In this document: piece after piece, positions 17,325 to 64,000 of the stretch
Layout of the letters: each line of letters begins with the position of its first letter
How positions within the stretch are numbered: position 1 is the stretch's first letter
Source: Alphaproteobacteria bacterium
GTDB lineage: Bacteria > Pseudomonadota > Alphaproteobacteria > UBA7985
Length of the DNA stretch: 64,000 nt
Direction: 5' to 3'
NCBI GenBank assembly: GCA_965661545.1
Contig: CBFIEF010000006.1
Span: 17,522 to 81,521 of the forward strand
Notes under the pieces: generated by a model
Database searches by the model: none
Told to the model about the DNA's origin: nothing
Seen by the model: only the letters and a program-made list of their open reading frames with translations
Program-made: the position numbers and the translations under genes

Positions 17325-18275
17325 ATGGTGCGGATTTTCAAAACGTTCATGCTCGCGATGTCACTCTTTTTGATGACCAGCGCAGCGGCCCAAGCTCAAG
17401 TTACGGTACAGGGCGTGCCCGTTGAGCGTGGTCTTGGCTTCCAAGACCCTGCAACTCCAATCATGGAGCGTGCAGTAGCACAGTACAATGTGCTGATTCT
17501 TCCGATTATGGCAGCGGTGACGATCTTCGTTCTCGTCCTTCTGCTGTGGACATGCTGGAAGTTTCGGGAGCAAGAGGGTCGCCAGCCAAGCACAGTGACC
17601 CACAACACGATGATCGAGGTGGTTTGGACAGCGGTTCCGATCCTTATCCTCGTTGTCTTGTTCATCCCGGCGATGCGTTTTCTCTACTTCAATGAGAACG
17701 GTCCAGACATGCTGATCAGCGGTGAGCGCGGCTATGATAAGCACGCTGAGCTGGTGATCCAAGCTACGGGAAACCAGTGGAACTGGTCCTACGAATACCT
17801 GCTGTATCGGGACGAGAACGGTGTAGAGACCGATGTTTCTGGCATCGAGTTTACCGCCAACATGCTCTCCCGCGACGCTTTGCTGGCCGATACTCGTCGG
17901 GACCAAGGCCTCTATAAGGGCGAAGCTGATTACCACCTGGTCATTCCGACCAACACGGTTGTTCGTTTCAACGTAACCGCATCCGACGTTTTGCACGCTT
18001 TTGCGATGCCAGCGTGGGGTGTGAAAATTGATGCGATCCCGGGTCACATGAACGCGACGTGGGCTTTGGTTAATGCAGACAAGGCTGGCCTGTACATCGG
18101 TCAGTGCTCGGAGATCTGCGGCGACCGGCACTCTTTCATGCCAATCGCGGTTGATGCATTGCCTAAGGACGAGTTCCTGACGTGGGCGGCAACGGCCAAG
18201 CAAGAGCTTGAAGGTGGCGCTATCGGCCCATCCCTGCCAGCGGTTTACGACAACCAAGTCGCAGCAGCGAACTAA
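17325..18275 (+). CDS. coxB: Cytochrome c oxidase subunit II
   Basis: THNTMIEVVWT, GNQWNWSYEY, DVLH, CuA motif CSEICGDRHSFM. Confidence 0.96.
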   Translation: MVRIFKTFMLAMSLFLMTSAAAQAQVTVQGVPVERGLGFQDPATPIMERAVAQYNVLILPIMAAVTIFVLVLLLWTCWKFREQEGRQPSTVTHNTMIEVVWTAVPILILVVLFIPAMRFLYFNENGPDMLISGERGYDKHAELVIQATGNQWNWSYEYLLYRDENGVETDVSGIEFTANMLSRDALLADTRRDQGLYKGEADYHLVIPTNTVVRFNVTASDVLHAFAMPAWGVKIDAIPGHMNATWALVNADKAGLYIGQCSEICGDRHSFMPIAVDALPKDEFLTWAATAKQELEGGAIGPSLPAVYDNQVAAAN

Positions 18276-58200: not shown

Positions 58201-60435
58201 TCACTGAGGTTTGATGCCGCCTGGGGACCACCGCGATGCCTGCGTTTGAGGCGTTTGGCGTTTGTCAGGCAGGACAAAGCGATTGTCGCCTGCGGGGAAG
58301 CGCTGACACGGCCGCTTCTCTGCGCCAATCAGGCGCTTTGAGCGAAGTGAGATGGTTAGGTCGTATCGCCGAGGGTTCGACTTCCAAAGGGTCCGCACAT
58401 CGGTCTCAGCACGAGTTAAGCGCGCTCGCAAAGCCTCGTCGCTCAAGCCGGCCGCACTTGAGTAGTCTATGATCAGGCGGGAGGGGCCCTGATCGAGCAC
58501 CTGCATCAAGCTGGCAAGCGTGCTGGGCCAAGACGGGTGAAAGCGGGAACCGGTTTTACCATCGAAAAAGGTGCAGTCCCCGATGTTCAACATAACTTCA
58601 CGGGACAGGCGGGCACCAAAGTTGGCTTTGGCGATCTTTCCCCGCGTTACACGCACAACACGCGGGTTCTCGCTGGTCATTTTATAACCAGCCGGCAAGG
58701 TGCGTTCGTCCAACTTGAGCACGAGATTTCTACCGGCGCCGTTTGGAACCAGCTCGCACGGCAGGTGGAAGCGTCCGTGTTCATCAGTCTTGATAAGCAG
58801 TCCACTATGCTCGCCTAGCCGAGCGGCGGCGATGCCTGGTTCTCCGGGGTCGGGGAGACCATTCGAGTTATCGTCTTTGAAAACCCGTCCAATCACCGTT
58901 GTGCAGCCCAACTGCTGATCCTGCCGCAGCTCAAAAGGCAGGGCAGCGAGGTTGGAAAATACCTGAGTGGTACCATAATTTGCGACGGCAAAGGCCAAGT
59001 TGCGGTGCGTGCCAACATCAAGCCCAATGGTCGCTAAAGTGCTGAAATCCACTTCCCTGGTTTCGCCCGGTTCCAGCAGAAGATTTGGCCAATGAATCAC
59101 AGCGCTAAGATCGTCGGCGCTCATGCCCGGATGCCGCACGGGGGTTGCATCGGTATCACTGGGGGCCCCCAGTTGTCCGCCCGTCCTGAGGTTCAGCCTG
59201 CTTGGATCAACCGCGAGGCCAACTGGGAGAATATCCAGCAAAGTCGCCGAAACGGCTGTATTCGACCTGTTTTCAACGGACAGGGTCCAACGGACGACAT
59301 CGCCCGTGGAAAACCGTGTTTGGTTCGCCGACTTTGTTACCCACAGCTGGATAATCGCGCCGGCCTCGGGGTCCAGATAGTCTGGGCGACCATCACCATC
59401 ACGGTCATCGTCGCATGGTGTGCCGGACTGATCCCAATCCTCGTCACGGGTCGGAATGCCATCACCATCGTCATCGGGATCGAGGTAGTCGGGAACCCCG
59501 TCGTTATCGCTGTCATCCGGGCCTTGTCCGTCGTTGTTTGAGTCCCATTCCTTGTGGTTGGGCACGCTGTCATTGTCGGTATCTTCTTCACCCGACAAGC
59601 GCAGGGCAAATGTCAGCGCGAGATAGGTGCGCGGTTCGAGCAAGCGGGCGGTGACAGAGCCGCTGGCGCTGGTGGAAAGGCTGCCTGCTTGACCGTCCAG
59701 ATCCACCCAACGATCGCCGTCCCAGCCGGCTAGCGTCAGGTTATCCAATGTTGCCCCGGGGGTGCTTTGGAGCAAGAGATCGATGCGGCTAGAGGCTTCA
59801 TATATGGGTGAAATATCAATGAGACTGTCCGCCCAAACCCGCCAGTACTCGCGGTCTGACACAGCCACGAGCAAGTTTTCCTGCTGCGGGCCGAAGTCTA
59901 ACTGTCCGTTGCGCCAAAAATAGTGTGCATCCACATCACTCGCAGTTTGATCCGCCGCTAACCCCACCAATCCACGATAGGTTTCGCCGCCTTGGATATC
60001 GCCCGTCGGGAAGACAAAATCTCCACCACCAACGCGCCGCACAGGGCCGTCGATGACACTATCAACGTCACCGCCATCGAGGATGGCACTGGGGTTAATG
60101 GATTGCGCGGTTGAGAGAAAGATGGTGTGAAAGTCTGGACGCTCGATCGGCGTTTCTGCGGCGCGCAGCCACCCGCCGTGCAGAGTGCCGCCCGTCTCAT
60201 CAATGACTCCCTGCACAAAATGCAGATCGCCAGAAATGAGTAAGGTTCCCTGATTAATGGTGCGCTGAGTGCTGTCATCCTGAATGAAATCGCCATTAAT
60301 CATGACGATCTCATCAGTTGAGATAAACAAACTGCCCGTATTAATGACCTGAGCCTGCGATTGCTGAACGGTCATCGTCAGGCTCGTCAACATTGCCGCT
60401 GCCAGTCGAAAGGGCAAAGCAAACCAATTTTTCAT
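58201..60435 (-). CDS. Exported multidomain protein: Bacteroidota-like N-domain, Ca-binding repeats, DUF11 and SdrD-B-like / C-terminal domain
   Basis: Signal peptide ending SQA; IDGPVRRVG...FVFPTGD, VSDREYW, AGWDGDRWVDL; DxDxDG repeats; VTKSAN..GDVVRWTLSVEN; IGRVFKDDNSNG..DPGEPGI, TDEHGRFH, LKLDERTLP, ENPRVVRVTRG. Confidence 0.75.
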   Translation of the reverse strand: MKNWFALPFRLAAAMLTSLTMTVQQSQAQVINTGSLFISTDEIVMINGDFIQDDSTQRTINQGTLLISGDLHFVQGVIDETGGTLHGGWLRAAETPIERPDFHTIFLSTAQSINPSAILDGGDVDSVIDGPVRRVGGGDFVFPTGDIQGGETYRGLVGLAADQTASDVDAHYFWRNGQLDFGPQQENLLVAVSDREYWRVWADSLIDISPIYEASSRIDLLLQSTPGATLDNLTLAGWDGDRWVDLDGQAGSLSTSASGSVTARLLEPRTYLALTFALRLSGEEDTDNDSVPNHKEWDSNNDGQGPDDSDNDGVPDYLDPDDDGDGIPTRDEDWDQSGTPCDDDRDGDGRPDYLDPEAGAIIQLWVTKSANQTRFSTGDVVRWTLSVENRSNTAVSATLLDILPVGLAVDPSRLNLRTGGQLGAPSDTDATPVRHPGMSADDLSAVIHWPNLLLEPGETREVDFSTLATIGLDVGTHRNLAFAVANYGTTQVFSNLAALPFELRQDQQLGCTTVIGRVFKDDNSNGLPDPGEPGIAAARLGEHSGLLIKTDEHGRFHLPCELVPNGAGRNLVLKLDERTLPAGYKMTSENPRVVRVTRGKIAKANFGARLSREVMLNIGDCTFFDGKTGSRFHPSWPSTLASLMQVLDQGPSRLIIDYSSAAGLSDEALRARLTRAETDVRTLWKSNPRRYDLTISLRSKRLIGAEKRPCQRFPAGDNRFVLPDKRQTPQTQASRWSPGGIKPQ
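59368..59583 (-). repeat. Thrombospondin-type-3-like Asp-rich calcium-binding repeats (protein level)
   Basis: DTDNDSVPN, DSNNDG, DSDNDGVPDYLD, DDDGDGIP, DWDQSG, DRDGDGRPDYLD. Confidence 0.8.
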
Positions 60436-60461
60436 TGCTGTGTTCTGCCCTGATCAAGTGG

Positions 60462-61523
60462 CTAGCTTGGCGTGCAGCTGTGATTGGCTGCTACTGAAAT
60501 CCGACCTTTGAGCGACAACGCAGTCTCGGTGAAGCCATAGGCCCCAACGGGCACAATCGCGTAGCCGTGAGCGTCAAAGGAAACTGGGCCACGCGGCGAT
60601 TGCCAAGACAGCGCAACAACATTGTCGAATAGCGTCTCCCGCGTTCCCTTCATGGCCTTAACCAGTAAGTTACCGGCTTCGAAGCCCATGAGGCCTGCAA
60701 AGCTGGGGTCTTCTCCGATCCACGCGTTGAACGCGGTCTTGAACTTGGTCGCATCAACGGTGTCGGGGTTCCAAGCGGATAGAAGCGTCACCGAAGAAAG
60801 GGCACTTCGTGTGGTGTTGGACAATCGATCGTAGTCGATTTCTGACGTGGTAACGGCCTTTAAGTCGTCTGCGATTACGCCTTCAGCATAGGCGTTGAGG
60901 TAGCCATAGAGGGCTTCGCCTTCGAGATCGAAGTAAGCCCCATCCGCCTTAGTGACCCGCAGAATTGCGATTTCGTTGTTAAAATCGTCTTGGTTGGGCG
61001 TGGCAAAAGCGGCACCACCGAGTCCGCCAGTATAGGCGCGCTGAAAATCATCGAGGTTCTGCTTCCCCTCTTCGCCTTGCTTCACAAACGCAAAGGTACG
61101 CTGCGCATTCAAGCTGTTCATATAAAGCGCGGCGAGCCTTCCTAAGGCGACATCACCGGCAAGGTGGACGGTACGTTTGTCACATGAACCAGTCAGATCA
61201 GGACTGAGGTTGATGAGCAGCGGTCCGTCATCCGTACCGTTTAGCGCACCACCAGCCTCGGCAACGTTGGTGATGACAACATCAGCGCCCGTGTCAGCGA
61301 CAACCGTTGCCAAGGGTTGAGAGCCTGAATAGGCCACGGCATCCAAAACTTGAATGTCATCTTGGCCCCTGAGCGAAAGCGCTAAACCAGCTTGCACATG
61401 CTCGGACCAGCTCAGGTCCATCGTGCGCGATGGGTCAAAGATAACGGATACGGAAAGAGCATTTCCACTGCCTGGCAGTGCCAAAGCGCCCAAGGCCAAA
61501 ACGGCCAGCGACAGCATTTTCAT
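60462..61523 (-). CDS. Orphan periplasmic-binding-protein type I fold protein (LivJ/K-like, divergent)
   Basis: Signal peptide; DFNNEIAILRVTKADGAY, FKTAF, WQSPRGPVSFD typical of branched-chain SBPs; ATG overlaps upstream TGA; no permease nearby. Confidence 0.7.
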   Translation of the reverse strand: MKMLSLAVLALGALALPGSGNALSVSVIFDPSRTMDLSWSEHVQAGLALSLRGQDDIQVLDAVAYSGSQPLATVVADTGADVVITNVAEAGGALNGTDDGPLLINLSPDLTGSCDKRTVHLAGDVALGRLAALYMNSLNAQRTFAFVKQGEEGKQNLDDFQRAYTGGLGGAAFATPNQDDFNNEIAILRVTKADGAYFDLEGEALYGYLNAYAEGVIADDLKAVTTSEIDYDRLSNTTRSALSSVTLLSAWNPDTVDATKFKTAFNAWIGEDPSFAGLMGFEAGNLLVKAMKGTRETLFDNVVALSWQSPRGPVSFDAHGYAIVPVGAYGFTETALSLKGRISVAANHSCTPS

Positions 61524-62467
61524 CAAAAATATTCCTCAGTTTGTAAACTTTGATTGGAGTGGTTCAAGAAAGCGCTCGCAGGAAATCTACGGGCGCTAAG
61601 GGCTTTTCCCTGCGAAATCTCGGGTGCGACCAGCGCCTCGAGCTCTTCGAGCCGTGTACGGAGTTCATCGATTTCTCGGGTTTTTTCATCGAGTGCCTTC
61701 ACTGCGGAAATCAGGGTGAAGACCAACCGCTGACTGTCCACGCCGAGATAGGTCGTTGGCGCCGTCGGTTGAGTGCTGGCAGGCAGGTTGAAGGATTGGA
61801 CAAGGTTGGGATCAATGCTGGCCGCCTCTTGAGCGATCAGGCCGTAATACAGGCGCTCGCTCGGCCCACCGGGTGCATCATCCGTGTATCGAAACTGCTT
61901 TGGCTCCATCGCACGGACTTGTTCGAGACCGTTGTCGTAGCTCTGAATATCGCGCTTAAACCGTCGATCTGATGTGGCAAAGGTTGCATGTGTGATCACT
62001 TGGTTTGAGGCAAAGAGAGAACCAGTCGCCCGAACGTCGCCTTGGACATCTAACGCGTACGCCGGGACTTCCACGCCAATACCTACGCGATTGTTTGTGT
62101 AAATAGCGCTGTCGATGGTGAGCGCGCTGCCCTCGACTGACCCGCGCCAATCGTCATCGGCGGGCATCTGAGAGGCGGTGTCGTCGGTCTGTTCAAAGGC
62201 GATGTCATCGGGTTCGATTGCGTGAAAATATCCCTGGTCGTCGGTTACGACGACGCGCAGTTGGGCCTCAGCTTGGGGGGGGTCGAGGTTCTCGATGCGA
62301 AGATCGCGACCGGCTTGTTCGCTTTCCCCAACAATGTGCAGTTTTGCTGCGGGCGTTTCCGTCCCGATACCAACATCTGCGGCACCCCAAGGCGGTGTGA
62401 ATAGAATGCCTGCAAGCGCGAAAATCGCGAAAGGGTATCGTTTAACGGATGGGGAACGAGATTTCAT
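61523..62467 (-). CDS. Exported short fibre protein with peptidase S74 intramolecular chaperone domain
   Basis: Signal peptide then VGIGTETPAAKLHI; VGIGVEVPAYALDVQG; TSDRRFKRDI, YGLIAQE, C-terminal coiled coil; start approximate. Confidence 0.85.
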   Translation of the reverse strand: MKSRSPSVKRYPFAIFALAGILFTPPWGAADVGIGTETPAAKLHIVGESEQAGRDLRIENLDPPQAEAQLRVVVTDDQGYFHAIEPDDIAFEQTDDTASQMPADDDWRGSVEGSALTIDSAIYTNNRVGIGVEVPAYALDVQGDVRATGSLFASNQVITHATFATSDRRFKRDIQSYDNGLEQVRAMEPKQFRYTDDAPGGPSERLYYGLIAQEAASIDPNLVQSFNLPASTQPTAPTTYLGVDSQRLVFTLISAVKALDEKTREIDELRTRLEELEALVAPEISQGKALSARRFPASAFLNHSNQSLQTEEYF

Positions 62468-62509
62468 TGTAGAACAATTCAATTTGTAAAATGGCAATGG
62501 GAGAAGAGG

Positions 62510-62539
62510 ACCGGGCAGGCGTGGGGGTACCTGCCCGGT
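62510..62539 (-). terminator. Hairpin downstream of the large fibre gene (possible partial terminator)
   Basis: ACCGGGCAGG-N10-CCTGCCCGGT followed on the minus strand by CCTCTTCT. Confidence 0.55.
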
Positions 62540-62601
62540 TTGTACTGATCAGCATCTGGCTCCTTCGGGGGACTAGGGAGGAGCCAGTAAAGTTTGGGGG
62601 T

Positions 62602-64000
62602 CTACTGATCAGAGACGCCGAGACGCGCTTCCATGAGGCGCATCCGATCTTCGAGAGCGGCGATGCGAATTTCAGACTCCATCACCATTGCCGCCATCCG
62701 CGCATTGTCAGCATCAATCTGCTGCAAAGCATTCGCGAGAACGTAGATCATGGATTGAACATTCACCGTCAGGTATTCAGTGCCATCTTCTGGAGAGAAA
62801 AATGAGCCCACGAGTTCAGGGTCAATCGCCTGCAGCTCCTGTGCAATTACACCGTAGTGCACCCGATCCGTATTCGTTGGCAGGCCCATACCGTTGTAAC
62901 GGTAAGAGACAAGGCGCAACTGGCGCAGGATCTCGAGACCACGGTTAAAGCCTTCCACTCCTGTCTTCAGACGGCGGTCTGAGGTTTGGAAGAAGTTGGA
63001 CGCGAGGAACTGGTCACCCGAGTAGATGTTACCCGTCGCACGAATATCGCCAGTGACGTCCAAGGCGTAACCCGGCGTATCGGTTCCGACGCCTACACGA
63101 CCCAGAGTCTGTCCGTTATCAGTTGCTTCACGGACCACCAAGGCGTTCTGGGTTGCCGCTGTATCAATAACCAGAGGGTAAGCAGGTGTGTTGGTGTTAA
63201 TGCCAACGTTACCATTGGTGTAAATGTCGTCACTGACCCGTGTTGCGAGGCTGTTGGTCGTGCCGGCAGCAGCCCAGTCGTTGTCTGTCGTGTCACTGTT
63301 CACAGCCGACAAGTCTACTGTCACGCTGCCCGCTTCATCGGTAATGGTTAGGACGTCGTCCGACCCCCGGAATGTCGCTGAGATGTTGGCAATGGTTGTA
63401 TCAACGAGAGTGTCCGACAGTGCAGAAAGATCCACGGTTACATCACCAGTTTCATCGGTGATGGTCAGCACATTGGTTGATCCGTCCAGCGCCGCTGCCG
63501 TGTTGGATACTGTCGTATCGCTCAGGGTTACGGCTAGGTCGGAAAGATCGACGGTTACATCACCAGTTTCATCTGTAATGGTCAGCACATTCTGCGCATC
63601 AAGCGTTGCGCCAGTGTTGGAAATCGTTGTGTCAGCTTGGGCACTTACTTCTCGCACGTTACCGGCAGCATCCACGGTCAGGTAGAGATCGTTCACCGCA
63701 TCGCCAACAACGAGTGCGTCACCCGTGCCGTATCTTGGCATGGTTACTTGACCGTTTGTGTCAAAGATAAACCTTTCCGTCGCTATGTTGTTGTCGTCTT
63801 CCGTTGCAATAATAAATCGATCAGAACCGGCAAGTGAATCATCGCCCAAAACGAGGGTTAGTTCAGAATCGTTGAAGCCGTTGTCAGTTCGACGCATCAG
63901 AATAGCGTCTGAATTCTGCATCAATGTGCCGAAGCGCAAAGCGGAATTTTGTCCAACGGCAACTATGCCGTCCTCAAAGTTGAGGGTATTGCCTGCCATG
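62602..64000 (-). CDS. Large fibre/adhesin protein with peptidase S74 chaperone domain, 5' end outside window
   Basis: Open frame to window edge; GQVTMPRYGTG, LTVDAAGNVRE, three LTITD..TVDLS repeats, GNVGINTNTP, VGVGTDTP, TSDRRLKTGV, YGVIAQE, coiled coil. Confidence 0.85.
   Translation of the reverse strand, partial: MAGNTLNFEDGIVAVGQNSALRFGTLMQNSDAILMRRTDNGFNDSELTLVLGDDSLAGSDRFIIATEDDNNIATERFIFDTNGQVTMPRYGTGDALVVGDAVNDLYLTVDAAGNVREVSAQADTTISNTGATLDAQNVLTITDETGDVTVDLSDLAVTLSDTTVSNTAAALDGSTNVLTITDETGDVTVDLSALSDTLVDTTIANISATFRGSDDVLTITDEAGSVTVDLSAVNSDTTDNDWAAAGTTNSLATRVSDDIYTNGNVGINTNTPAYPLVIDTAATQNALVVREATDNGQTLGRVGVGTDTPGYALDVTGDIRATGNIYSGDQFLASNFFQTSDRRLKTGVEGFNRGLEILRQLRLVSYRYNGMGLPTNTDRVHYGVIAQELQAIDPELVGSFFSPEDGTEYLTVNVQSMIYVLANALQQIDADNARMAAMVMESEIRIAALEDRMRLMEARLGVSDQ
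63295..63633 (-). repeat. Three tandem ~38-39-codon repeats in the fibre gene
   Basis: DTT(I/V)(S/A)N..A..(DA/DG/RG)..(N/D)VLTITDE(T/A)G(D/S)VTVDLS starting at 63633, 63519 and 63402; DNA 63551-63591 nearly identical to 63434-63474. Confidence 0.9.

Follow-up and report, generated by a model that had tools for sequence, protein, structure and literature searches.

A putative non-phage S74 fibre operon with two candidate partner proteins in a marine alphaproteobacterium

We analyzed a 64,000-nucleotide stretch of DNA (the window; G000:C6:17522-81521, positions 17,522 to 81,521 of contig CBFIEF010000006.1) from the alphaproteobacterial assembly GCA_965661545.1 (genome G000; 2.79 Mb, 68 contigs, 94% complete). 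At its right-hand end lie four successive co-directional genes on the minus strand, which encode a large S74 fibre, a small S74 fibre, a protein of 354 amino acids (aa) and a multidomain protein of 744 aa. We lean towards reading these genes as an operon of the chromosome, and not of a phage, that encodes a small apparatus of surface fibres, likely for adhesion, of the same kind as the mosaic adhesive trimer (MAT) fibres of Bdellovibrio bacteriovorus, because the design of the fibres is that of MAT fibres. MAT fibres, e.g., Bd3182, are secreted, non-phage S74 trimeric fibres (Caulton et al., 2024, PMC10769870), and a first-pass annotation of this DNA, which had called the system undescribed, went too far in that respect. 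The new element looks to be the operon partnership, in which a coupled orphan binding-fold protein and a chimeric 744-aa protein are encoded with the fibres. The genes and their junctions, read as open reading frames (ORFs), are as follows, with window-equivalent coordinates above 64000 continuing the numbering into the genome to the right of the window.

62602 to 64000, minus strand: 3′ part of the large S74 fibre gene (465 codons); the ORF, at 62602-63999, runs off the window
62602 to window-equivalent 65511, minus strand: full large-fibre ORF, 969 aa from TTG, reaching 1.5 kb beyond the window
61523 to 62497, minus strand: small S74 fibre gene, 324 aa from TTG, or 314 aa from the probable ATG at 62467
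61521 to 61525, minus strand: TGATG stop/start overlap of the small-fibre and binding-fold genes, with GAGGA 9-13 nt upstream, read directly
60462 to 61526, minus strand: gene for the protein with a type I periplasmic-binding-protein fold, 354 aa with a Sec leader
60436 to 60461, minus strand: intergenic gap of 26 nt between the binding-fold gene and the 744-aa gene, read directly
58201 to 60435, minus strand: ORF of the 744-aa multidomain protein, with leader at aa 1-28 and Gln29 as mature N-terminus

The co-directional arrangement, the overlap and the 26-nt gap had been claimed before, and all were confirmed from the ORFs and the DNA. The small fibre ends in ...EEYF, followed by a TGA stop that overlaps the next ATG, and with GAGGA upstream the binding-fold gene is, on this sequence evidence, translationally coupled to the small-fibre gene. 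Sec-type leaders with a charged n-region, a hydrophobic core and an A-x-A-type site were recognized by eye on all four proteins, and by the same judgement none of the leaders has a lipobox Cys. The signal peptides proposed earlier for the three complete genes were in this way borne out, and the full large fibre has one too; its probable start at MKTKLL gives a protein of 951 aa with the leader MKTKLLLAGASALALSWAQSARA. Sequence retrieved to the right of the window contained the rest of the large fibre with this leader and then housekeeping genes, with no adjacent outer-membrane barrel gene.

The surroundings are those of an ordinary chromosome. The left flank (13 ORFs) encodes HrcA, GrpE, DnaK, DnaJ, Asd, a LeuB-like isopropylmalate-type dehydrogenase, homocysteine methyltransferase, an FMN oxidoreductase, DsbB and similar proteins, and the right flank (8 ORFs) encodes DUF1045, DUF1801, an AP endonuclease, MttB, two proteins similar to dimethylglycine (DMG) dehydrogenase, a LysR regulator and one protein with no Pfam match. 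No phage genes (capsid, terminase, tail tube or sheath, integrase, lysis) were found among these 21 flanking ORFs, and none lies within ~15 kb, in agreement with the first-pass annotation, which had seen no capsid, tail, integrase or lysis gene. The GC content of the module is 0.54-0.58, like that of the remainder of the window, and the only two S74 domains of the genome are both in this cassette. Between the large-fibre start and DUF1045 there are ~600 nt (window-equivalent 65512-66124) with no convincing ORF, presumably the promoter region; a consensus scan of the locus for promoters and terminators stayed at chance level.

Three parts of the fibre proteins were delimited as follows.

62809 to 62982, minus strand: Peptidase_S74 domain of the large fibre, aa 844-901, starting at SDRRLK (Pfam 58.1 bits, E 1.1e-15)
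61799 to 61972, minus strand: Peptidase_S74 domain of the small fibre, aa 176-233, starting at SDRRFK (Pfam 52.5 bits, E 5.9e-14)
62213 to 62383, minus strand: N-terminal module of the small fibre, right after the leader (DVGIGTxxPxAxLHxVGE..DLRIENLDP..VVVTDDxG)

The Pfam cut-off for Peptidase_S74 (PF13884) is 22 bits. The catalytic S-D-x-x-x-K motif is intact in both fibres (SDRRFK at S176 of the small fibre, SDRRLK at S844 of the large one), and in 13 family members the S, D and K never vary and the Arg between them is conserved in part. The large-fibre S74 domain aligns to the ICA domain of MyRF (7dc3). The stalk that precedes the S74 domain carries a VG(I/V)G..P...L loop, which aligned to the same loop of the MyRF domain and occurs three times in the large fibre. 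Both the SDxxxK motif and a capping-loop motif, V-G-x-x-x-x-P-x-x-x-L, are given for S74 proteins in the MAT report (PMC10769870). The VGIGT..P motif, earlier taken to be typical of Flavobacteriia, is this general S74 capping-loop motif, common to MyRF as well.

Beyond their S74 ends the two fibres differ in build and share their beginning. In the large fibre, the shaft is built from some eight repeats of ~38 aa (DTT.SNTAA..G..N.LTITDETGDVTVDLS; ..NxLTITDETGDVTVDLS..) between larger blocks. The protein contains no Cys, and its length among relatives (969, 776 and 699 aa) goes with a variable number of repeats. Directly after the leader both fibres have a common N-terminal module of ~55 residues, (E/D)xVG(I/V)G..P.A.LH..G(D/E)....D....NL(D/N)...D..G, which gives a BLASTP match of 49% over 35 aa between the large and the small fibre (E 1e-5) and is kept in both fibre classes of three genomes. 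Phage likeness is limited to the C-terminal ~150-200 aa: 25 PHROG tail-fibre families matched the small fibre, in its C-terminal part only, and all 17 phage records matching the large fibre were confined to aa 758-966, with no more than 20% query coverage and less than 60% identity. A profile search of viral contigs returned no relatives of the small-fibre alignment or of the 744-aa alignment. The fibre shaft had an Atlas score of 0.91 to unnamed clusters without taxa, which is a lead only. The C-terminal tail of the small fibre (61526-61576), beyond the S74 chaperone and a coiled coil, has the pattern ..FL......L....(Y/F)F with a terminal Phe in 9 of the 13 family members.

These features correspond to those of MAT fibres, which have a signal peptide, one conserved end and long, meandering, cell-exposed trimers, with an S74 end in 13 of the 21 (PMC10769870). 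The present fibres are likewise chromosomal and non-phage, with a signal peptide, a long beta-rich fibre and a terminal S74 domain with SDxxxK and the capping-loop motif, and likewise one end is conserved among paralogues and the remainder is variable. Differences from the account of Bdellovibrio lie in the genetic setting, with two fibres in one operon here as opposed to 21 scattered paralogues, and in the two dedicated partner genes with which the fibres are encoded here. The host, furthermore, is a marine alphaproteobacterium that does not look predatory. Fibres and tailspikes of phages with a C-terminal chaperone (K1F endosialidase, the T5 L-shaped fibre) and the MyRF ICA domain are also alike in having an S74 domain and a preceding stalk; in contrast to these, the present proteins have export leaders, no virion gene context and shafts without phage relatives. 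No paper on such an operon was found in the literature covered, which did not extend to the MAT-like proteins tabulated for other strains in Supplementary Tables 3 and 4 of PMC10769870.

The four genes behave as a unit across related genomes. In G009 and G006 the same genes, in the same order, are flanked by DUF1801/DUF1045 and DsbB, and G003 and G002 have the same four-gene arrangement as far as their short contigs reach, so that the co-occurrence in other genomes on which the earlier proposal depended was found, fully in two and partly in two more. In every genome that has any of the four genes they stay together as far as contigs allow. Four other members of the genus (G001, G004, G008, G010) have an empty site, in which AP endonuclease and DUF1801 are directly next to DsbB; the S74 domain was found in none of these four genomes and in two copies in G009. 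The downstream DsbB gene, considered as a further member of the cassette, was rejected, because genomes without the cassette have it at this position too, and the module-bearing protein of G015 has no DsbB neighbour.

Between G000 and G009 the module proteins share 68-74% amino-acid identity, compared with 95-98% for DsbB, AP endonuclease and MttB and 71% for DUF1045. The ratio of non-synonymous to synonymous substitution rates (dN/dS) of the module genes is 0.09-0.15 in the same pair. This low ratio, taken with a divergence faster than that of the flanks, marks them as real, fast-moving genes that are constrained by purifying selection. Synonymous divergence (pS) is 0.62-0.72 in the module, up to 0.74 when DUF1045 is included, and 0.43-0.53 in DsbB, AP endonuclease and MttB. 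Since pS is higher in the cassette and DUF1045 (to window-equivalent 66820) than in the other flanks, the alleles of the island may be older than the split of the host species, or may have been exchanged by recombination. At least 12 studies, with 16 marine metagenome runs between them, contain the stretch in nearly identical form, and public family members bear names such as 'hypothetical protein [Rhodospirillaceae bacterium]' and '[Alphaproteobacteria bacterium TMED89]'. In a single RNA-Seq study, two runs yielded short contigs that fall on three of the four genes, a mere hint of expression because DNA can be present in such libraries.

The 354-aa protein had no family in Pfam, NCBIfam or PHROG, and at E ≤ 10 its sole Pfam match was DUF3142 (E 0.091). 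Its AlphaFold2 (AF2) model (predicted local distance difference test score, pLDDT, 78.8; predicted template modelling score, pTM, 0.73) is a two-lobed alpha/beta fold, which Foldseek matched to LivJ/LivK-type proteins at E 8e-15 to 1e-10 and template modelling (TM) scores of 0.54-0.70; the best matches were 4evq, 3i45, 3hut, 1usg and 2liv (E 8e-15 to 2e-11). The earlier call of a type I periplasmic-binding-protein fold is therefore right on this structural match, with indirect sequence links besides: an exhaustive phmmer search of 1.84 billion representatives gave 31 matches at E ≤ 0.001, one of them at E ≤ 1e-30, and 10 of the 11 matches scanned contained Peripla_BP_6. Among the same 1.84 billion representatives the protein has only one close cluster at 50% identity. 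C115 and C351 are invariant in the family. No ABC transporter permease or ATPase genes were present among the flanking ORFs scanned, the neighbours being the fibre and 744-aa genes. As modelled, the protein is thus an orphan of this fold. It resembles the LivJ/LivK-type (Peripla_BP_6) ABC solute-binding proteins in its two-lobed type I fold and by distant sequence similarity, but differs in falling below every Pfam threshold, in having no adjacent transporter genes and in being coupled to a fibre gene. A possible distant second lineage is represented by P0150 (26% identity), from a cluster without names; scans of genome contigs and metagenomes for this lineage returned only the present one.

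The 744-aa protein is composed of four parts after its leader.

59590 to 60351, minus strand: lineage-specific N-terminal domain, aa 29-282, highly conserved
59365 to 59589, minus strand: Asp-rich repeats resembling thrombospondin type 3 repeats (calcium-binding type), aa 283-357; TSP_3 17.3 bits (cut-off 25), with invariant D/G columns
58921 to 59358, minus strand: DUF11-type immunoglobulin (Ig)-like domain, aa 360-505; DUF11 20.6 bits (cut-off 24.6), TIGR01451 22.9 bits (cut-off 24)
58321 to 58902, minus strand: SdrD_B-like segment and alpha/beta end domain, aa 512-705; C511, C560, C621 and C710 invariant

The DUF11 score of the protein itself lies below the cut-off; homologues with the same C-terminal module match DUF11 at 1.6e-13. 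The Ig domain gave VIA Z scores of 10-11.5 to macroglobulin (MG), CLIPPER and pilin-type domains. The model as a whole is poor (mean pLDDT 54.9), with a confident beta-sandwich at aa 150-290 and low confidence at aa 21-136. The VIA-wide, Foldseek PDB and BFVD lists for this model were taken up by matches to the Ig domain or by weak long alignments, and a PDB profile search with the protein gave nothing below E 0.13; we do not take this as a sign of a new fold. A profile comparison detected no homology between the 744-aa family and the small-fibre family.

Clusters matching at least 72% of the length of the 744-aa protein number 12 among 5.8 billion proteins, its own included, and most of the other 232 matches are confined to the Asp-rich repeats or to portions of its C-terminal half. 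The N-terminal region finds its own family only (10 of 10 matches), and when the family profile was run over 401 genomes of the phylum, every match outside G000, in a total of 52 matched genomes, began at profile position 280 or later. Nine of the 401 genomes had the complete C-terminal module (about positions 370-700), at E 2e-43 to 3e-66; it lay within ORFs of 2079-4907 aa in eight of them and of 743 aa in G443, and at two inspected loci it forms the C-terminal end of proteins with DUF7507/DUF11 repeats. Because the head is restricted to the lineage and the C-terminal module ends giant ORFs, the 744-aa protein is, judged by its sequence, a true chimera, as had been proposed, with a unique head joined to an adhesin tail that is in wide use. 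Its aa ~364-705 are collinear with the ends of giant DUF11/DUF7507 adhesin-like proteins of Pseudomonadota (~340 C-terminal aa in the same order, 34-38% identity, E down to 3e-66); compared with these it has a unique, lineage-only domain of ~260 aa and Asp-rich repeats instead of a long repeat stalk.

Two further copies of the module deserve a brief description. In G000 itself, a run of minus-strand ORFs of 950, 270, 298, 300, 251 and 374 aa (G000:C13:58070-66140) ends in a copy with 40% identity to aa 544-710, and could represent one giant adhesin gene interrupted by frameshifts or by the assembly. In G443 (L056, G443:C1:1844001-1863000) a 740-aa module protein stands in a row with two DUF11 proteins, a 1432-aa ORF and a LysM/FecR protein. 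The 1432-aa ORF, possibly an outer-membrane barrel, has a terminal Phe and no Pfam family, and as a query it gave no match in G000.

Gene content, domains, folds, synteny and selection are what was observed at this locus, and on them we base a proposal for surface location, binding partners and target. Both fibre proteins would be exported by Sec, and each would probably trimerise through its C-terminal S74 intramolecular chaperone, which would then cleave itself off at the Ser of SDRRxK. The expected products are two beta-rich trimers, long (~825 aa) in one case and short (~137 aa) in the other, with the same N-terminal module of ~55 residues, which would serve as the retained, cell-proximal end and leave the freed C-terminal tip as the binding end. 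From the gene order, the coupling, the shared fibre N-terminus and the chimeric build we infer a candidate holder in the 744-aa protein, whose C-terminal Ig/SdrD_B/alpha-beta module would tie it to the envelope, with the fibres docked on its unique N-terminal domain. The binding-fold protein, whose synthesis is coupled to that of the small fibre, could be an accessory that acts in assembly or escort or that forms a ligand-binding head. In sea water, the apparatus would likely serve to attach the cell to particles, to algae or to other cells.

The MAT report describes a conserved, beta-rich N-terminal domain of ~130 aa and leaves the anchor open (PMC10769870). We tentatively propose, with limited credence, that the 744-aa and binding-fold proteins are the missing holder of MAT-type fibres, with the C-terminal module in the envelope and the N-terminal domain, perhaps together with the binding-fold protein, gripping the fibre module. 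In the one predator in which phage-type fibres that are secreted have been studied, their retention on the cell was left open; here a minimal four-gene package with two candidate partners occurs in a widespread marine host, and the question of anchoring therefore becomes testable with four proteins. If the partners prove to be the fibre anchor, the operon would offer a first genetic entry to the way in which a Gram-negative cell keeps and presents secreted S74 fibres, and the end module of the adhesins would be a portable anchoring device. The analysis also delimits a C-terminal module that giant adhesin-like proteins of many Pseudomonadota have in common, and on whose role in export or anchoring no literature was found.

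Several points weigh against a surface-fibre apparatus of MAT kind. Trimerisation and cleavage are carried over from knowledge of the family, and surface exposure and the contacts among the four proteins are inferred. The N-terminal and end domains of the 744-aa protein have no fold match, and its low mean pLDDT has been given above. No passage through the outer membrane is apparent: a secretin was not found in the G000 genome (94% complete), the proteins have no sorting domain of the type IX secretion system (T9SS), and no gene for an outer-membrane barrel is adjacent. Both OmcB, a DUF11 protein, and proteins with a type I binding fold can be periplasmic, and the whole set could therefore stay inside the envelope. 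Lastly, the shared N-terminal part of the fibres is ~55 aa, as against ~130 aa reported for MATs (PMC10769870), a comparison of described lengths, since the PDB contains MAT fibre tips only.

If the set does stay inside, the four proteins would form a structural or sensing assembly of the periplasm or the inner face of the outer membrane and not an adhesin, which we consider a fair alternative, though less likely. Such an assembly would fit the plain Sec leaders, beyond which the four proteins carry nothing more, as well as the missing secretin and T9SS tag, a binding fold typical of periplasmic proteins and conserved Cys pairs in the two partners that suit periplasmic disulfide formation; repeats of thrombospondin type 3 also occur in P0028, which its source names an OmpA family protein. 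However, the variable length of the large fibre and its fast divergence are traits of exposed surface proteins, MAT fibres of the same build are surface-exposed (PMC10769870), and the C-terminal module belongs to adhesin-like giant multi-Ig ORFs of 2000-4900 aa. The S74 ends, which resemble phage tail fibres, and the behaviour of the cassette as an indel within the genus could also suggest the remains of a tail-fibre region from a phage, a tailocin or a gene transfer agent (GTA), decaying or co-opted piecemeal beside unrelated partner genes. We give this very little credence, in view of flanks free of phage genes, export leaders on all four proteins, dN/dS values of 0.09-0.15, genes that are kept together as far as contigs allow with translational coupling of fibre and partner, viral contigs without relatives of the small-fibre or 744-aa alignments, and two partner proteins without a PHROG match.

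An import from Bacteroidota was the origin put forward in the first-pass annotation, in which the module came from a T9SS context and its sorting domain was swapped for a proteobacterial C-terminal module; we regard this as improbable. In its favour, the 744-aa protein is a clear chimera, and an Atlas feature score of 0.82 links a homologue, used as the query, to hypothetical clusters of Bacteroidota, though by the tool's own figures this is chance level. The predicted mature N-terminus of the 744-aa family (60349-60351) is Gln in 10 of 10 full-length members, an eleventh row being truncated at the N-terminus, and this nearly invariant residue, Gln29, recalls the Q-rule of Bacteroidetes (PMC5837995); it could equally be an ordinary residue of the domain. 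Against an import, the searches, which did not address Bacteroidota genomes directly, yielded no relative from that phylum for any of the four proteins; the cited motif is the general S74 loop motif, and the GC content of the module is that of its surroundings. No T9SS C-terminal sorting domain of type A or B was found in the four proteins with Pfam and NCBIfam. As a marker of the T9SS machinery, PorP_SprF was not found, but its control was positive in no genome, and we count this neither for nor against a T9SS. Of 301 genomes sampled from the same class, moreover, 20 already have S74 proteins, so that no Bacteroidota donor is needed. The earlier proposal of a non-phage trimeric adhesin module accordingly survives in part: the flanks and leaders speak for non-phage, chromosomal, exported S74 fibres with two partners, and its "Bacteroidota-style" recruitment from a T9SS context finds no support.

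Among other alphaproteobacterial S74 loci, L052 to L055 held no relative of either partner protein. Several small genomes (1.2-2.4 Mb) carry 3-5 S74 copies, some of them in ORFs of 2000-4600 aa. At four of ten other alphaproteobacterial S74 loci inspected (L041 in G061, a genome flagged as unpublished; L042 in G171; L046 in G166; L048 in G139), S74 proteins of 456-546 aa begin with a leader similar to that of type IV prepilins (G-F/Y-T/S-L/M-V-E and a hydrophobic helix), and these look like fusions of a pilin N-terminus to an S74 C-terminus.

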